Below are positions 40,606-57,704 of a stretch of 64,000 nt of DNA, one piece after another. A program made the translations under genes and the position numbers. The notes beneath the pieces were generated by a model. It saw only the letters and a list, made by a program, of their open reading frames with translations, searched no databases and was not told the origin of the DNA. Numbering within the stretch: the stretch's first letter is position 1; each line of letters starts with the position of its first letter. Source of the stretch: Escherichia phage vB_EcoM_EP57; sequence record OR544956; one strand, 5' to 3'.

Positions 40606-41169
40606 ATGATTTATTATATTACTCCCTATCTGACAGGAAATATCGGCAAGGCTATCAATGAAGCCATTGCCGTTCTTCCAGATGATAGTTGGGTGTGTTT
40701 AAGAGATACCGATACAATGTTCCTCCTACCTGATCAACCATCTATGCTTGAAGAGCTTGTTATGTCAAACCCGCCTTTTGATGTAATAGGTGCAACTTGT
40801 AACAGGTTAGGCAGTGGTTATCAGCTTTTCTCTAACCAAATTAACGATGATCCAGATATTCTAAACCATATAGAATATGCTAAGATTGCAAGAGAATATC
40901 ATAAAGTAAATGTTGAAGAAGTTCCTTTCGGAACACCTCTGGCAGGTTTCTTTTTGCTTTTTAGAAAATCATTGTGGAATGAAATTCCTTTTGAAGAAAA
41001 ATCTATCCAATTCGACTTAATTTTCTCTCGCACTTTACATGAAAAAGGAAAGAGGTTAGGATTGATGCGGGGAATGTATCTGTTTCACATTTACAGATTA
41101 GGTCAAACAAATCCTCAACGGTCTATACATCATTTATTACACTGTCATGATCACAGTAAAACTATTTAG
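40606..41169 (+). CDS. putative GT-A-like glycosyltransferase
   Basis: DTD (DxD) after N-terminal beta-alpha-beta. Confidence 0.4.
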   Translation: MIYYITPYLTGNIGKAINEAIAVLPDDSWVCLRDTDTMFLLPDQPSMLEELVMSNPPFDVIGATCNRLGSGYQLFSNQINDDPDILNHIEYAKIAREYHKVNVEEVPFGTPLAGFFLLFRKSLWNEIPFEEKSIQFDLIFSRTLHEKGKRLGLMRGMYLFHIYRLGQTNPQRSIHHLLHCHDHSKTI

Positions 41170-41177
41170 GAGAGAAA

Positions 41178-41861
41178 ATGGAAAATATTAAAATCGGAGT
41201 GGGTGTTATCACTGTAGGTGTCCGTCCGCTTAAAGACTACCTTGTAACAGATCCACGTGCAGATTTTCGAGTATTCAACGATCCAGATCGTAAAGGTGTA
41301 GCTTATGCCAGGAATGAACTTATGCACCAGTTTTATGAAGAAGGTTATGATTATTGGTTTATTTTTGACGACGATTGCTACCCAGTCATGGAGGGATGGG
41401 AAACATATTTTGTAGATCAAGCTGTCTCTGGAGGATGGGATTTCTTTGGTATGCCGGAGTACTTCAAAGATAAAGTTGTTGGAAGCAAAGGAGAAGTTAT
41501 TCTCTGGGAACTTGCAATGTGTCAATTTGCAATGTATTCTCGTGCCGTTGTTGAGAAGATGGGTTATTTCCGTCCTTACACTCACGGTTATGGTTTTGAA
41601 GATGCTGAATGGGGACACCGTTTGCAAGCTGCTGGTTTGAATCATGGTATTCAGGCAACACCTTGTCCACTTCGTATCATGGCTTATATCCACCCAGACG
41701 ATGTTTTTGGAAACAATCCTATGCCTTTTGCTAATCTGACAAAAGAAGAGAAAGAAGCTGCTATTGGGATTAACTGGGAAGAATATAAAGCATCTTTAGA
41801 GGATATTAAAAATGGGAAAATCCGAATTTCCTATGAGGAGGCACTAGCACATGTCAAATAA
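41178..41861 (+). CDS. GT-A (family 2-like) glycosyltransferase
   Basis: FDDDCYP DxD and GFEDAEWG. Confidence 0.55.
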   Translation: MENIKIGVGVITVGVRPLKDYLVTDPRADFRVFNDPDRKGVAYARNELMHQFYEEGYDYWFIFDDDCYPVMEGWETYFVDQAVSGGWDFFGMPEYFKDKVVGSKGEVILWELAMCQFAMYSRAVVEKMGYFRPYTHGYGFEDAEWGHRLQAAGLNHGIQATPCPLRIMAYIHPDDVFGNNPMPFANLTKEEKEAAIGINWEEYKASLEDIKNGKIRISYEEALAHVK

Positions 41862-42798
41862 AAAATGGTCTAAACTAAAAATTGATGCAAAACCTCACAG
41901 CGGTTGTGACTATCATCGTATTGTTATGCCATTTAACAACAATAATATTCAACCTAAGAAAGATGCTGTTGTGTTTAACCGTATCCACTCTAAAGGTGCA
42001 GAATACGTTTTATCTTTGAAACGTCAAGGTGTTAAGATTGTTGTAGATTTAGATGATTTCTACCAACTTAATCCAGAACATTATTTAGCAAGTCTATACG
42101 AGTCAAACACTCATGCTATTGTAGCTATGGTTAAGCTTGCGGATGTGGTTATTGTGACTACGGAATATTTGGCATATAAGATCCGTCACTTAAATAGGAA
42201 TGTTGTTGTGATCCGAAATGCACTTCCTTTTGATAGTGGACAATTCACTTTGTCAAATGATCGTTCATCCGGTACCCCTGTTGTATGGGCTGGCGGTGCT
42301 AGTCACGAACCAGACTTACGACTAGTCTCTAATACTTTCGATGATGAACTTCTTACTATTGCGGGATATGAAACATCACAAAGCATCACGGGACAAGAGT
42401 GGATTAAGATTCGCAGAAATTTACCAAATGCTAAATATAAAGCCGCTGTAAAAGATTTAGATAATTACATGAGTGTTTACGAAAGTCATGCTATTGCTAT
42501 AGCTCCTTTGGTAGATAACGATTTTAATAATTGTAAAAGTAATCTCAAAATCCTGGAAGCTGGAGCAAAAGGTATTCCAATTGTTTGTTCTAAGGTATTA
42601 CCTTATTTTAACCCTGTAGATGCTCGCGCTGTTGCTTACGCAGAGAATAAAGCAGAATGGCATTACGAAATTGTTAAGCTTCTTCGCAATCCAAACTATC
42701 GGGAAGATCGTGGCTTGTTCTTGGCTGAACATGTTCGAACACATTATAATCTGGCAGATGCAAACGAGTTGCGACGCCAGGTTATTGAAAGTTTGTAG
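41851..42798 (+). CDS. GT-B-fold glycosyltransferase
   Basis: KSNLKILEAGAKGIPIV donor-binding motif. Confidence 0.6.
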   Translation: MSNKKWSKLKIDAKPHSGCDYHRIVMPFNNNNIQPKKDAVVFNRIHSKGAEYVLSLKRQGVKIVVDLDDFYQLNPEHYLASLYESNTHAIVAMVKLADVVIVTTEYLAYKIRHLNRNVVVIRNALPFDSGQFTLSNDRSSGTPVVWAGGASHEPDLRLVSNTFDDELLTIAGYETSQSITGQEWIKIRRNLPNAKYKAAVKDLDNYMSVYESHAIAIAPLVDNDFNNCKSNLKILEAGAKGIPIVCSKVLPYFNPVDARAVAYAENKAEWHYEIVKLLRNPNYREDRGLFLAEHVRTHYNLADANELRRQVIESL

Positions 42799-42805
42799 GT
42801 GAAGT

Positions 42806-43750
42806 ATGGGACAAATAATTCTTGACAATCGTAACGGAATCAATTATAGTGTCTGCGATTTCCATAGGGTAGTGCTGCCTTACTCAAGGCAGTTCTCTTC
42901 ACAACCTAAACACAACGTTTTCGTTTTTAACGGGGTGCCAACAAAAGGTAAAGAGGGCTTTTTAGCCCTTAAAAACCTAGGCTTTAAAATGGTTATGGAT
43001 TTGGATGACTCTTTAGTTATTCCAAAAGGACACATGTTAGAAGGTATTTTTGAATCAGGTATTCGTGAACATTTAAAATGGTTTTTAGAGCACAGCGATC
43101 TTGTTACAACTACGACACCTGCTTTGCAAGTTGAACTTTCACAATACAATGATAATGTGCACATAATCCCTAATGGACTTCCTTACGATGAAGGTCAATT
43201 TGTGTTGACCCGTGATCGCTACTCCAAAACTCCATTAGTCTGGGCTGGAAGTGAAACACATAAACAAGATTTGGCTATCTTGCCCGATTTTGGTAAAGAT
43301 CTTACAATATGTGGTTTTCGTAGGGATTCTGAAGTTTTAAGTAGTCGTGAATGGTCTGTGATCAGAGAAAATGTAGCACCAACTTGTGTTTATGAAGGTG
43401 TAAGACCATATGCCAACTACATGGAATCTTACGATGGTCATCAAATCAGTCTTGCGCCATTGATTGATAACGTGTTTAATAATGCAAAAAGCAATCTTAA
43501 AATTCTTGAGGCAGGTGCTAAGGGTTTACCTTTGATTTGTTCTCCTCGTGAGAATTATCATACACAAGAGTTTAAAGATTTGTTATTCTTTGCTGAAACA
43601 CCTTCCGAGTGGAAAGATATTACGGAATACTTATTAAGTGCTCCCGATGTTTGCATGGAGAAAGGATTAGCATTAGCTAAGTATGTCAGGACTCATTATC
43701 ACATTGATGTGTTGAATGAGCGTCGTAGACTTTTATTTGAGGAGCTATAA
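42806..43750 (+). CDS. GT-B-fold glycosyltransferase, tandem paralog
   Basis: KSNLKILEAGAKGLPLI; colinear with previous gene. Confidence 0.6.
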   Translation: MGQIILDNRNGINYSVCDFHRVVLPYSRQFSSQPKHNVFVFNGVPTKGKEGFLALKNLGFKMVMDLDDSLVIPKGHMLEGIFESGIREHLKWFLEHSDLVTTTTPALQVELSQYNDNVHIIPNGLPYDEGQFVLTRDRYSKTPLVWAGSETHKQDLAILPDFGKDLTICGFRRDSEVLSSREWSVIRENVAPTCVYEGVRPYANYMESYDGHQISLAPLIDNVFNNAKSNLKILEAGAKGLPLICSPRENYHTQEFKDLLFFAETPSEWKDITEYLLSAPDVCMEKGLALAKYVRTHYHIDVLNERRRLLFEEL

Positions 43751-44028
43751 TGATTAACACTTTTGATTTTGAATACACCACTCGTAACGGGAAAGCTTTA
43801 GTCGTGGAGGTGGATTACTATTATGAAGAGCCTAACCCGCTTTCTCGTGAAAGTGATTGGGATTACCACGGAGGGCTTTTAATCGACGGTATTCGTTTTT
43901 ATGAAGGCTCTACAGAAGTTTTTGAAAAAGATTTAAATGTAACTGTAGCAGAAATTGCTTTCCAATTTAGAAAGCACATGGAAGAACTAGAAGCAGAATA
44001 TATGATGGAGACTAACGAACCATTTTAA
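43750..44028 (+). CDS. hypothetical protein (92 aa)
   Basis: ORF. Confidence 0.5.
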   Translation: MINTFDFEYTTRNGKALVVEVDYYYEEPNPLSRESDWDYHGGLLIDGIRFYEGSTEVFEKDLNVTVAEIAFQFRKHMEELEAEYMMETNEPF

Positions 44029-44040
44029 CAGGAGAACAAA

Positions 44041-45812
44041 GTGTCGCACATTATAACTAAATATGGATTTGATGTTGATCTTAGCAAGGAAGGGCATACA
44101 GGTTGTCCGCGCTGCATGAAAAATGGCAAGGATCGCTCTCGTAATAACCTGATGGTTTATGGATTAGATTCTAATGGAGAGCATAAAGGTGCTAAGTGCT
44201 TTGCGTGTGAATACACTATTCCTAGCGTAGAATGGTTACGAGAAAATGGTGAAGTTTTAGAAGAAGAGGAGGAGATTGTGGGTTCGGAATTTAATAAACA
44301 GATTCATCGTAAAATTGTTCAAGAAACATCAACCAACCCACGTGGTTATCGAGGCATTAAAGAAAAAGTTTCATCTTTCTATGGCGTTCGTTATGAATAC
44401 CGTCAGGAAGGGGATCAGATGGTAGTAGAAAGTTGTTTATATCCGACTACCATCGGTAAAGAGTTGGTTGGTTTTAAGCGTCGTATTCATCCTAAAGATT
44501 TCAGTAAACCTATTGGTCAAGTAGGTAAAGATGTAGATCTTTTTGGACAAATTCGTTTTGCAGACCGTTCTCATACTGTGGTAATTACAGGTGGTGAACA
44601 CGATGCTCTGGCAGCTTATCAAATGCTGTCTGAAAACTTGGACAACAAATATGAACTTCCAGCAGTAGTTAGTGGCACAACTGGTGAAACCAGTATGTAT
44701 AAACAAGTTCAGGCACAATATCCTTTCTTTGAAAAATTTAAGAAGATTATTGTTTGCATGGATAATGACAAAGCAGGTAATGAGGCATTTGAAAATATTG
44801 TTAAGGTGCTGCCTCGTAACAAAGTCTACCGTATGCAGATGGATCTAAAGGATGCCAATCAGTATCTGGAAGAAGGCCGTGCAAAAGATTTCGTAAAAGC
44901 TTTTTGGAGTGCTCGTCTATACACCCCAGCAGGTGTTTATGCTTCTAATGTCTTGTATGAAGCTGCATTAGAATGCTTGGAATCCAAGATGATTACCTTG
45001 CCTCCTTTTATGCGTGTTGCTGCAAACATGCTGGGTGGTGGTTTAGTAGAGGAAGAGATTACCGTCATCCTGGCAAAGACCAGTATCGGTAAAACTTTGA
45101 TGGTGAACGAGATCACCAAACATATTATTGTTGCGCACCCAGAACATACCCTAGGTATTCTGTCCTTGGAAGCAACTTATAAGAAATATTCTCGTAACCT
45201 GTTGTCCTCGTTCCTGCATATTCCTCTACACAGGAAAACACCGGAAGAGAAATTTCAAATCTTGGAAGAGAATAAAGAAAAAATCCTAGATTTTTACGAA
45301 AGAGAAGATGGATCACCACGTTTTTATGTGTGTGATGATCGTGGAGCAGATGTGGAGTCTATCAAAGAAAAAGTTTTGGAGATGATCATCTATTTTGGAG
45401 TAACAATTCTTGTTATCGACCCTTATTCTGATTTGCTTTCTGGTATGGATGTTCAAGCCCAGGAAGAGTTAGCAACATGGTTGAAGCGCATCATGAAAGA
45501 GTATGCTATAACCATTATCCACACGTTAAGAAGTCGGCTAATGGTGGCAATGAACACTTAACAGAGGACGATGCAATGGGTAGTAGTTTCTTGGCTAAAG
45601 GTGCTGGTATTACCTTGGCTTTGGAACGAGATAAAGCCGCTGAAGACCCTGTAGAACGCAATACGACTCATTGCTTTATCCTAAAAAACCGTGAGTTCTC
45701 GGAAACTGGTCCGGCAGGGCAGTTTTACTATGACATTAGAACTGCAACTCTGCATGACAAAGAGCAGTATTTCAACAATCCTGCTAATTTGCCTACGGAT
45801 AGCAACTATTAA
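44041..45812 (+). CDS. T7 gp4-like primase-helicase, frameshifted
   Basis: Zn ribbon, TOPRIM, Walker A/B, C-terminal HVKK..GG..ALER in next frame; ORFs 44041..45561 and 45477..45812. Confidence 0.75.
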
Positions 45813-46345: not shown

Positions 46346-47140
46346 TTGAGCAAGTTGAATACACTTGATCAATATTACACTAACCCCGCTTATGCGGGGT
46401 TCTTATGTGATAAGATCAAAGAAATTTTTGGAGAGGAAGCTAACTACGTAGAACCATCTGCGGGAGAAGGAGCTTTCTCTTTTTGTTTTAAAAACATAAC
46501 TTCTTTTGATATTGATCCTAAGTTTGAAGATTGTATTGAGGCAGATTTTTTAGCTCAATCTGTTGAGTCTGTTGGTAGTGTAACTGCTTTTGTCGGTAAT
46601 CCTCCGTTTGGAAAAAATGCCAGTCTTGCCATTAAGTTCTTTAACCATTGTGCTGAAATGTTGGATAACGAAGGTGGTATTTGTTTTATCTTGCCTCGCA
46701 CATTTCAAAAAATCTTTTTTGCACACAAACTAAATCCCCACATGCATCTTCTTTACGAAGAAGAATGTCCAAAAGGATCTTTTATTCTTCATGGAGAACC
46801 TTGGGATGTTCCTTGTGTATTCCAGATATGGATTAAACGCAACGAGAAGCGTTCTCCCGTTGTTTTAGGAGAAAATCGACTGTTCGTATTAGGTAACAGT
46901 AAAGACTACGACATAGCCGTTAGGAGAGCGGGAGCAAGTGCAGGTAAAGTGTTATCAGAAGAAGATTCTTTATCTGAAGCATCTACCTACTTTTTAAAAG
47001 CCTTGACTTCTGATCTTAAAACACGTATCATTGAGGCTTACCCGTTACTTAAAGCTGAAGCTAGTAAAACTGCGGGAGTAAGAAGTTTAAGTTTAAAAGA
47101 ACTTCAGTGGGTTCTGGAGAACATTAGAAAGGAGGAATAG
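46346..47140 (+). CDS. DNA N6-adenine methyltransferase
   Basis: SAM motif EPSAGEGAF and catalytic GNPPFG. Confidence 0.65.
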   Translation: MSKLNTLDQYYTNPAYAGFLCDKIKEIFGEEANYVEPSAGEGAFSFCFKNITSFDIDPKFEDCIEADFLAQSVESVGSVTAFVGNPPFGKNASLAIKFFNHCAEMLDNEGGICFILPRTFQKIFFAHKLNPHMHLLYEEECPKGSFILHGEPWDVPCVFQIWIKRNEKRSPVVLGENRLFVLGNSKDYDIAVRRAGASAGKVLSEEDSLSEASTYFLKALTSDLKTRIIEAYPLLKAEASKTAGVRSLSLKELQWVLENIRKEE

Positions 47141-55491: not shown

Positions 55492-57704
55492 TTAGGTTGT
55501 TGGCACATCTACTACTGGCGTTGGGCGAATAACCGCAGTATTACCTACAGAAACATTACTGGAATCATTAGGTATGGTTTTAATTCTAACTCCAGCACTT
55601 GTAGGCGTTACAATTGGATCTGCAATGTCTATTTTAACTGGGTTAGTCCACGTATCATTATCTTGATAAGGTGCACGAGTAATAACTGTGTCCAAATCTG
55701 CTCCACCTACGCCAGCACCAGGAATACGGATACGTGTCCCTGCTGACAGAGGGTAATGATACAACCAAGAAGCATTTGTTGCTGTCCCGTTAGGAGTCAA
55801 GTTCTGTGTCAGGAAGGTATCTCCTGCCTGTGTAGCTCGAATACCGAAAGCTGGGATATCTGGAATATATGCCCCACTTGTTGTTACAAGGAAGAACGTA
55901 TTATCCGCCTTGACTATCATATCACCTTTGTCAAACTCTTTCCCTGTTGGGAAATGCATTCCATCAATGTTTCGACTAGGATTAGGCTCTAAGTAATAAA
56001 CTTTGCCCGTTGTCCCTACAATAGCTCCAATACCACCTGCGATATTGGTATACATATTAGCTTCAACATTACAGTTGACACGATGAATATCCGAGTAACG
56101 GCAACGGCTCCACTGTGGACGACCAGTAACCATCGTCTTGCCATCTGGGTAACAGTTTACGTTAACCATTTCAAGAACAGATTTTTCTCTACGGAAGAAT
56201 CCATCATAAAATGTTCCTGGACCAGATTCAGGTTGACCAACACAATCGAAGATATTACAGGTGATGTTAGACATTGAAAGCCAAGAAGCTATACCGAACA
56301 ACTGCAATGCAGCGCAACGAATATTTTCAAAGCTAACTCTGTTTTCATAACCTGGCCCAGCGGAAACTCCCGCAAAAACACGCCCAGTTTTGGTGTGAAT
56401 GTTACGAACAGAATAGTTAAAGCATGGGTTTGAAGGTCTACCCTGTGCCGGAACTACCGGATTACCCTCTTCGTCCAGAACTGCGTTAGTTCCCCACTCC
56501 AAATAAATCATACGGATATTACTTGCAAGTGTGCTACCGTCTGTTTTAGGCTCCCCATAAACACCGTCAATCGTAAAATCTTTACTTCCATACATTACAA
56601 CTGCGCCAGTTGCCAAACCTGTCCCAACAGATACGGTTTGATCTGGATCGCCATGAATGTTTTCGATAGAAATATTACGACCAACTTCTACGTGGACAAT
56701 CTGACGGCAACGTTTTGCAAAAACGTTACGAATTGTAATATTCTTGCAATATTGATCATCAGGGATTCCGTAACCATATGGTCCTTTACCAGCTACACCG
56801 ATACCGATACCCCAGTTGGACAGAGGAATAGGAGCGTTAGTCCCATCGATATTAGACAGGTAAATATTCTCAATCACACAACCATCATCATAATGTTTAT
56901 TGATGACGTTCAGTTCTATCGCATCACCTTGCATGTCCATGAAGGTAAGGTTACGGAAGACACCACGTGTTACTGGTTCCCCTGTCCCTTGTTGAAGCCA
57001 TATAACCCGTTTTTAAAAGTACAGTTATCAATTTCAAAAGTACCTGATATTGGGTTGCCTTGGAATACCAAGCTACCAACTTGACCTGCGCGAGGAGCAC
57101 CGTCCCACAAACAATCGAACATGCGCACAGCACCACCCCAATACATAACACGAGAGTTACGGAAAGTTGTGCCTTCTACTGTAGCATTTTGCACACGATA
57201 GTCGCGTTGACCACGGAACACACCCCCACGCAAAGTGATATCTTGAATATCAAAAGAGCTTGTCGTGAAAGTCATATCGCAACCGTAAGCATCGAGAATC
57301 TTGCTTTTCGAAGCTTTTGCTGCTAACAGTGCCGCCTGGAAAGCTGCTTCTGGTGTGGTATAGGTAGTTGTATTGTTAGCAAATTCTGACAAGTAGACAA
57401 CATCGAATAAATCGTTGTATGTTCCACCACGAGGGGTTAACAGTCCTTCCGTATTAGTTAGAACCCATGCGTTTGGACCTAATCCACCGCTTGTCTCTAA
57501 TGTGTCAGAGGCCAAAATACTTTTTGGTAAACTTCCAGCCCAACGATAACGACCAGCACCACGTCCAATCGTCTGATTTTTAGCTGTCAGGGTTACGTTA
57601 TTACCAAAGCTTGTAGGCAAATGGACAAATTGTCCACGTTCAACAGCCAGTGCAGAAAGATCTACAGATCCCCCAGAATAAGTCATTACTCCAGAAACAG
57701 ACAA
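55492..57704 (-). CDS. tailspike-like beta-helix protein, frameshifted
   Basis: ORFs 56970..57704 and 55492..56940, contiguous in different frames. Confidence 0.45.

Follow-up and report, generated by a model that had tools for sequence, protein, structure and literature searches.

We analysed a 64,000-nucleotide stretch (the window) of the genome of Escherichia phage vB_EcoM_EP57 (sequence record OR544956), which belongs to Phapecoctavirus, the phAPEC8-like E. coli myophages of the subfamily Stephanstirmvirinae. At 40606-43750 it carries four consecutive glycosyltransferase (GT) genes on the + strand, GT1 (40606-41169), GT2 (41178-41861), GT3 (41851-42798) and GT4 (42806-43750), which appear to be an expanded copy of a portable GT1+GT2+GT3 cassette shared with small phages. 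In its small-phage members we are confident that the cassette is a system for glycosylating virion proteins that works with a C-terminal (P)TT tag; that the Phapecoctavirus array itself glycosylates virion proteins we regard as moderately likely. Since the cassette lies beside capsid genes and co-occurs with Pro-Thr-Thr tails, its product is most likely a sugar coat on the virion and not a modification of DNA. The whole case is built on comparisons between genomes and on predicted structures. All four genes already carry the label "glycosyltransferase" in the RefSeq records of tuntematon, phAPEC8 and others, so the bare annotation is not new; what is new here is the likely substrate.

The Thr-Thr ends of capsid proteins were seen beside the cassette first, and close relatives of three unrelated capsids were then scored for presence of the cassette against the C-terminus. 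In lineage A the capsids of eight loci with the cassette end in ...PFAAPTT, ...PFTQAT or ...PFTAAT, whereas about 65 relatives without it (55-60% identical) end in ...EATP, ...DPTP, ...AP or ...GAF, with a terminal threonine in none (0/~65). The tail tubes of cassette-bearing lineage A phages end in ...GGPTT, ...GAPTT or ...WTTT, and no homologues of these tubes were detected in phages lacking the cassette. Both lineage B capsids with the cassette carry the tag (...ELTSSSTT and ...ELTVAPTT), while 79 relatives without it, although 86-93% identical, end in ...ELTPAA, ...TPATP, ...TTTPPAGG and similar sequences (TT in 0/79). The tail tubes follow the same pattern: those of the two lineage B cassette loci end in ...TSEPTT and ...LLEPTT, and those of 67 relatives without the cassette in ...SAVVA, ...AGA, ...GGGA and the like (PTT in 0/67). 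Lineage C capsids encoded with the cassette end in ...GANTTT and ...SANPTT and a tail tube of this lineage in ...TANPTT (L006), as compared to a TT end in 0/42 capsid relatives without GT1-GT2-GT3. Pooled over the three capsid lineages, a (P)TT end is found in none of more than 180 close relatives that lack the cassette. In a fourth lineage, the probable capsid of a GT1-GT2-GT3 locus (L047) ends in ...QLNPTT. With typical residue frequencies assumed, a PTT end arises by chance at about 1e-4 per protein, and it is very unlikely that chance alone would put it on the two abundant virion proteins of three independent lineages and restrict it there to cassette-bearing phages.

To map the cassette we ran hidden Markov models of the three GT families over prophage loci and 79 IMG/VR loci fetched with a GT3 alignment, and read the neighbourhoods from precomputed Pfam labels, clustering of neighbouring proteins and Pfam scans of representatives. 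Homologues of GT3 in bacterial genomes are 40-50% identical to the window protein, and four of the five contexts examined are prophages. In these prophages GT3 is immediately preceded by a GT2 homologue (36-43% identity), and in three of the four a GT1 homologue (41-44% identity) lies just ahead of the GT2-GT3 pair. In most loci with a GT3 of 37% identity or more, GT2 is its neighbour, immediately 5' of it with a single exception and often overlapping it, and across the IMG/VR loci GT1 is placed to give either GT1-GT2-GT3 or GT2-GT3-GT1. At about 40-50% identity the cassette is found in phages of E. coli, Klebsiella, Enterobacter, Serratia and Pseudomonas. Three unrelated enzyme families have thus been kept together through rearrangements and across lineages, for which the simplest reading is a single pathway. 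Duplication of GT3 is limited to Stephanstirmvirinae-like large myophages: Phapecoctavirus and Justusliebigvirus records hold two GT3-family copies and some Klebsiella phages one.

The cassette lies in or against the head morphogenesis module in about 10 of 14 distinct lineages. In lineage A (L034, L038, L044, L046) the order is TerL-portal-protease-capsid (PF05065)-[GT2-GT3-GT1]-head-tail connector, with the tape measure gene further on, and in lineage B (L009, L028) capsid (PF20036)-[GT1-GT2-GT3]-tail terminator-tail tube. Lineage C (L006, L010) has lysis genes-[GT1-(NDP-sugar epimerase/dehydratase)-GT2-GT3]-HNH-TerS-TerL-capsid, and lineage D (L005, L011, L030, L031) holin-[GT2-GT3]-TerS-TerL-portal, followed at a distance by the capsid gene. 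Elsewhere the cassette is flanked by tail-fibre genes and TerL (L036), follows the portal gene (L043), precedes a portal gene of SPP1 type (L048) or lies at a distance of about 3 kb from TerL (L039, L040, L045). The only cassettes among replication genes are those of L041, L042, partly L014, and the Stephanstirmvirinae-like myophages (the window and L017-L026).

These positions and hosts bear on a second possibility, that the enzymes make or modify a glycan of the host surface (lipopolysaccharide (LPS), O-antigen or enterobacterial common antigen (ECA), with phage-made dTDP-rhamnose) and so block superinfection or keep progeny from sticking to debris. Surface glycans (ECA/NGR, LPS core) do serve these phages as receptors, a complete rml pathway is encoded by the phage, and the structural neighbours of GT3 include enzymes of lipid-linked glycans (PglA/PglH-like, WaaG, WbnH and PimA). 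We nevertheless consider a host glycan unlikely as the substrate. Four prophage loci have the cassette in a late or structural operon, not near the integrase as seroconversion genes are, the hosts that share it differ in their surface glycans, and the C-terminal tags would be left unexplained. GtrABC-type systems depend on membrane proteins that are made in the lysogen and handle undecaprenyl-phosphate-linked sugars in the periplasm. They resemble the cassette in that phage glycosyltransferases alter a glycan relevant to phage-host recognition, but the cassette proteins look soluble and, in the prophages examined, sit among late and structural genes. A crude hydropathy scan gave no clear transmembrane segment in any of the four window proteins (19-residue Kyte-Doolittle maxima of 0.8-1.65, the borderline maximum of 1.65 being that of GT3); none of them has a Gtr-like Pfam match, and the set contains no flippase, polymerase, ligase or GtrA/B/C-like membrane partner.

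Glycosylation of virion proteins by phage enzymes has a precedent. According to papers that cite Freeman 2023 (Cell Host Microbe 31:1216), the virions of the mycobacteriophages Che8, Corndog and Myrna are glycosylated by their own glycosyltransferases (PMC12619734, PMC12363180, PMC11256854), with glycans on the C-termini of capsid and tail-tube subunits (PMC12619734, PMC12363180). The genes concerned include Che8 gp108-110 and Corndog gp38, and a citing paper counts Che8 gp110 among the enzymes reported as essential for capsid glycosylation. Such glycosylation is reported to hinder antibody binding and to lower the production of neutralising antibodies. In the searchable literature, virion glycosylation is established for mycobacteriophages only.

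GT2 provides a link to these phages. By tblastn it matches 327 Mycobacterium phage records and 2 of Mycolicibacterium, and its profile aligns with that of Ramsey gp106 with a probability of 99.4% (hhalign, E 1.4e-21, 194 columns), including the FLFDDDCYP and ED motifs; this comparison marks GT2 as a homologue of the N-terminal domain in enzymes of the Ramsey gp106 type (phrog_1579). Ramsey gp106 resides in the virion-glycosylation locus of cluster F1 mycobacteriophages, where it adjoins gp108, a Pfam GT25 protein like Che8 gp110. GT1 was tried against Che8 gp110 and against GT2 and has no detectable relation to either. The two systems are alike in using phage-encoded soluble glycosyltransferases and one short C-terminal tag common to capsid and tail protein: in Che8 and Ramsey the capsid protein and the major tail protein each terminate in GS (...NKTGS, ...YSDGS, ...VPDGS, ...YSDGS), as capsid and tube proteins of small cassette phages in three lineages end in (P)TT. 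The gene order glycosyltransferases-HNH-terminase is matched by the Enterobacter and Serratia prophages of lineage C; in the mycobacteriophages this order spans the genome ends, with glycosyltransferases-HNH at the right end in Che8 and HNH-terminase at the left in Ramsey. They differ in that the cassette hosts are Gram-negative, the tag is another one, and the cassette includes a GT-B enzyme (GT3), whereas the right-end loci of Che8 and Ramsey that we scanned encode GT2-like, GT25-like and methyltransferase-fusion proteins and no GT-B. The window myophage differs further, with the genes in a replication module and GT3 duplicated. In the small phages the cassette system is very probably a Gram-negative counterpart, and a variant, of the mycobacteriophage one.

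Two IMG/VR loci related to capsid lineage C (L178:3288-4748 and L197:10017-11522) encode 486-501-aa (amino acid) glycosyltransferases of phrog_1579, the Ramsey gp106 family (E 1e-236 and 1e-208). The L197 copy directly follows the capsid gene, and the capsids of the two loci end in ...GQGS and ...AIGS, the GS tag of Che8 and Ramsey capsid and tail proteins. A tag-enzyme pair of the mycobacteriophage type may thus also occur outside actinobacteriophages.

Chlorovirus PBCV-1 decorates its own major capsid protein with A064R and partners, cytoplasmic multi-step glycosyltransferases (including rhamnosyltransferases and a methyltransferase domain) that work with sugar-nucleotide enzymes. The cassette would resemble this system in strategy, as a virus-encoded, host-independent means of capsid glycosylation, and GT1-like domains are likewise fused to GT or methyltransferase domains. 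PBCV-1 differs as a giant virus of eukaryotes with N-linked glycans on internal asparagines. The fusions are found in metagenomic GT1 homologues (P0171-P0316), where the GT1-like domain is often the C-terminal half of a 370-660-aa protein and the other half is a TOD1/MUCI70 glycosyltransferase-like, GT2 and/or methyltransferase domain. Fusions of GT1 to methyltransferases suggest that glycans are methylated in some versions of the pathway.

The four window genes are open reading frames (ORFs) that fill precisely the stretch given in an earlier note on this DNA, which had called them four consecutive glycosyltransferases, two GT-A and two paralogous GT-B from a tandem duplication, and had quoted the motifs DTD and FDDDCYP; the assignments proved right, and both motifs are real and conserved across homologues. 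Gaps of 8 and 7 nt and one 11-nt overlap separate the genes, and a Shine-Dalgarno-like sequence lies 5' of each. The region is 98-99.8% identical to about 64 Phapecoctavirus genomes and 60-80% identical to a few sister phages. GT1 (187 aa) is predicted to be a minimal soluble GT-A enzyme: its DxD metal/nucleotide-sugar motif, D34-T-D36, is invariant in 23 homologues, and its model is a single Rossmann-like alpha/beta/alpha domain that resembles solved GT-A enzymes. In GT2 (227 aa) the motifs F-D64-D65-D66-C-Y-P and Y-G-x-E141-D142 are invariant in 18 homologues. GT2 matches phrog_2456 at E 1e-78; it falls below the gathering threshold of 23.3 for Pfam Glycos_transf_2 (PF00535; 13.3 bits, E 0.08) and below the gathering score of Glyco_transf_7C. 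Its relatives L047:9210-9962 and L197:10017-11522 score 23.9 bits against PF00535 and Ramsey gp106 scores 23.2 bits. The DDD and ED motifs, the sub-threshold Pfam scores, PHROG 2456 and profile homology to the Pfam-GT2-positive mycobacteriophage enzyme together argue that GT2 is a GT2-like GT-A enzyme.

GT3 (315 aa) and GT4 (314 aa) have the GT-B arrangement, a pair of Rossmann domains of which the C-terminal one holds the nucleotide-sugar site. At 41% identity over 303 aa (E 3e-77) they are, judged from their sequences, true paralogues. GT3, which is GT4-like in the family sense, is the canonical copy, corresponding to the single copy of small phages. The diverged tandem copy retains every family-invariant residue, and K-S-N-L-K-x-L-E-A-G is invariant in 40 GT3/GT4 homologues. 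Against Pfam Glyco_trans_1_2 the GT4 protein scores 25.2 (cut-off 25); GT3 is below the cut-offs of both Glyco_trans_1_4 and Glyco_trans_1_2 (22.8 and 20.2, cut-offs 27 and 25), and many GT3/GT4 homologues carry precomputed PF13524 or PF13692 matches. None of the four families had a meaningful match among PDB sequences, whether searched by sequence or by profile, and an NCBIfam search with the GT proteins gave nothing.

In the mechanism we propose, the cassette would glycosylate phage structural proteins in the cytoplasm of the infected cell, before or during assembly, and so give the virion a glycan coat. In small phages the acceptor would most likely be the C-terminal Thr-Thr of (P)TT-COOH on the major capsid and tail-tube proteins; one enzyme would start by placing a sugar on threonine, and the remaining ones would build this up into a short oligosaccharide. 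In Phapecoctavirus, GT3 is duplicated to give GT4, and the phage's own rmlBADC genes could supply dTDP-L-rhamnose as donor for at least one step. The analysis shows the enzyme folds, the conservation and genomic setting of the cassette, its co-variation with the C-terminal tags and the homology with a mycobacteriophage glycosyltransferase; from these we infer that the enzymes act as O-glycosyltransferases on the tags, which sugars they use and, least surely, what the window phage offers as acceptor. The rmlBADC operon is found outside the window, at 121282-124560 of tuntematon. RmlD occurs in 155 and GT3 in 145 phage records, with a similar breakdown by host name when compared as totals and not record by record, and the same phages recur in the two lists, including Klebsiella phage phi1_175008 with its single GT3. 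The rml genes and this similar distribution make dTDP-L-rhamnose a plausible donor.

Candidate acceptors in the window phage would be a tailspike (ending in PTT), the capsid (TTA) and the decoration protein (FTS, in ...VVFTS), none of them decisive. The colanidase-type tailspike (482 aa, 55492-56940, - strand), a possible if weak acceptor, has a C-terminal extension that ends ...IRPTPVVDVPTT-COOH and is the sole PTT-ending ORF among ORFs of at least 60 aa, both in the window and in the tuntematon genome. Because phrog_6117 covers residues 1-462 and stops there, the last 20 residues constitute an extension, and tblastn alignments with colanidases of other phage groups stop about 26 residues short of the end. 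PTT is retained on the tailspike of the diverged sister phage PsgM04F (...PVIDTPTT); the corresponding ends are ...VTVNNA in alia and ...VYSERT in PVP-SE1. The capsid end ...VVKLTTA is common to all three groups of Stephanstirmvirinae with the cassette that were sampled, namely Phapecoctavirus, Justusliebigvirus and Klebsiella phage phi1_175008. We considered and set aside this end as a diagnostic feature: the difference between ...KLTTA and the ends of cassette-less Vequintavirinae (...KATLKGE, ...STGTFA, ...STGKFTA) is real but confined to a single clade.

Several observations weigh against virion-protein glycosylation. Neither the capsid (TTA) nor the tail tube (...LTIQ) of the window phage bears a PTT tag. 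A PTT tag on the tailspike that reaches the sister genus was rejected, as Justusliebigvirus lacks it (alia, ...VNNA) though it has the same four genes. The array is located in the replication module, near the primase/helicase and DNA polymerase genes, and the head genes are not adjacent. Among small phages, the capsids of several lineages that have GT2 and GT3 only (L011, L036, L048) lack a terminal threonine. The tagged phages of a lineage may share ancestry as one clade, so that the independent events number about 3-4 and not dozens. Similarity of the GT proteins to Che8 gp108, gp109 and gp110 is not significant, the R...DDD...ED pattern of GT2 is shared with DNA-modifying TAGT enzymes (bioRxiv 10.1101/2023.12.21.572611), and searches of the literature on Phapecoctavirus, phi92 or capsid glycosylation found no experimental work on these genes.

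The site among replication genes and the shared motif also speak for a rival reading, in which the enzymes would add sugars to a modified base in phage DNA, in the style of T4 or of TET-associated systems, to block host nucleases. Such a role was proposed by Olsen et al. as rhamnosylation of hydroxymethylated nucleotides (PMC7552041), GT2 has a weak match to the T2/T6 beta-glucosyl-HMC-alpha-glucosyltransferase PHROG (E 8e-6), and clusters of DNA-modifying glycosyltransferases can also lie near structural genes (bioRxiv 10.1101/2023.12.21.572611). The likeness to T4 and TAGT (PF20691) systems extends to arrays of GT-A and GT-B enzymes, the GT-A pattern and the genomic site. The TAGT match of GT2, however, covers 37 residues around DDD and scores 19.5 bits (E 1e-3) against a cut-off of 27.5, and the proteins examined include no hydroxymethylase and no TET or C5-methyltransferase partner. 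The earlier note had seen no hydroxymethylase in the window, and this holds for the rest of the genome as well, judged from the RefSeq annotation of 99.4%-identical tuntematon, which lists no dCMP/dUMP hydroxymethylase and ThyX as the sole thymidylate synthase. Nor was a TET/JBP or C5-methyltransferase domain (PF12851, PF00145) found in ten scanned proteins of about 280, a scan that took in the RefSeq "Dcm" and "DNA methyltransferase" proteins and their neighbours. No C5-cytosine methyltransferase or TET/JBP dioxygenase adjoins the GT array, and no base-modification genes were seen in the 10 kb flanks of the cassette in small prophages.

Published restriction data on relatives point in the same direction. 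The Justusliebigvirus phages Bas60-62, which share the four genes and rml, belong to those that the BASEL study calls "exceptionally susceptible" to restriction-modification systems, a property it reports for Vequintavirinae and phi92-like phages "despite ... a putative dTDP glycosylation machinery" (PMC8594841). HincII cut all isolates of another collection except three Tevenvirinae, and the isolates cut included Phapecoctavirus and Justusliebigvirus (PMC10269720). The relatives' DNA is in this respect restriction-sensitive, where the T4 and TAGT systems differ. Rare or sequence-specific DNA glycosylation may still occur. DNA modification would also leave the PTT tags on capsid and tube proteins unexplained, and overall we judge it quite unlikely. 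The earlier note was right to leave the substrate open, while both substrates it offered, DNA bases and host polysaccharide, are disfavoured here and virion proteins fit better.

Several tuntematon genes labelled "DNA methyltransferase" or "Dcm" lack Pfam support (L004:13892-14575, L004:6972-7481, L003:22004-22483). One of them, between the portal and scaffold genes, instead matches the XkdF-type prohead protease family, and an NPPF-motif "N6-adenine methyltransferase" in the window (46346-47140) has no Pfam match.

The genes that precede the array raise one more alternative, which the earlier note had thought conceivable: that the enzymes glycosylate a nucleoside-like metabolite made by neighbouring Ter/vWA/PRTase (phosphoribosyltransferase) genes. 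TerD-like, vWA, TerC and tellurite-resistance-like genes do occur on the same strand, at distances of 1.3 to about 10 kb 5' of the array, but the endolysin and several unrelated small genes stand between the two gene groups. Dozens of phages carry the cassette without any Ter or PRTase neighbour. Because the cassette moves between phages without these genes, the link finds no support, and we regard it as very improbable.

Returning to glycosylation of virion proteins, a broader picture can be drawn, which we put forward tentatively and with less than even confidence: a tag-and-glycosylate system, with an O-linked oligosaccharide on PTT, would be widespread in phages of Gram-negative bacteria and would have been enlarged, fed with rhamnose and retargeted in Stephanstirmvirinae (for example to a PTT tailspike and/or to capsid and decoration proteins), giving a rhamnose-containing shield. 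If virion glycosylation is real and common in Enterobacterales and Pseudomonas phages, candidate phages for therapy would be affected in their immunogenicity, pharmacokinetics and stability. Stephanstirmvirinae include E. coli phages characterised as such candidates, and several phapecoctavirus papers concern therapy or biocontrol. Virion glycosylation would also explain the long-puzzling dTDP-rhamnose operon of phi92-like and phAPEC8-like phages, and would offer a short, genetically encodable tag and three enzymes for the glycoengineering of phage particles or other proteins in E. coli.

Some cassettes depart from the common form. Three Justusliebigvirus-like loci (L020-L022, GT3 about 73% identical) have the order GT1-GT3-GT3 with no GT2 between, from which L019 and alia differ; some members may have lost GT2 or may do without it. 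In a myophage-like locus from Logan contigs (L014:8973-13346), GT2-GT3 is followed by four genes without Pfam matches (328, ~356-372, 359 and 279 aa) and then, just before the baseplate genes, by a cytidylyltransferase-like gene. These neighbours may be a linked CMP-sugar pathway. In the Trinickia symbiotica chromosome a non-prophage GT3 homologue (L008:10001-11026, 41% identical) has no GT1 or GT2 neighbour and adjoins an invasin/intimin-like giant adhesin; this GT-B enzyme may serve bacterial protein glycosylation.

In the window the array resides between a SleB-type endolysin gene, with adjoining small genes, and the primase/helicase gene. A 92-aa ORF of phrog_4240 (function unknown; 43750-44028, + strand) overlaps the stop codon of GT4 by one base. 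An annotated ORF of about 90 aa is also found 3' of the array in tuntematon and alia, and the small phages examined have none comparable 3' of their cassettes. Two overlapping ORFs (44041-45561 and 45477-45812, + strand) make up the primase/helicase gene, with an apparent frameshift near 45530-45560, while in tuntematon it is one 592-aa coding sequence; an indel from sequencing, a pseudogene and programmed frameshifting are possible explanations of the split. Over the array region, several records named for other hosts ("Campylobacter phage" A145, B15 and others, Acinetobacter phage ABPW7, Klebsiella phage ZCKP1 and Dompiswa phage TSP7_1) match E. coli Phapecoctavirus or Justusliebigvirus at 98-99.8% identity, which reflects either a very broad host range or wrong labels.

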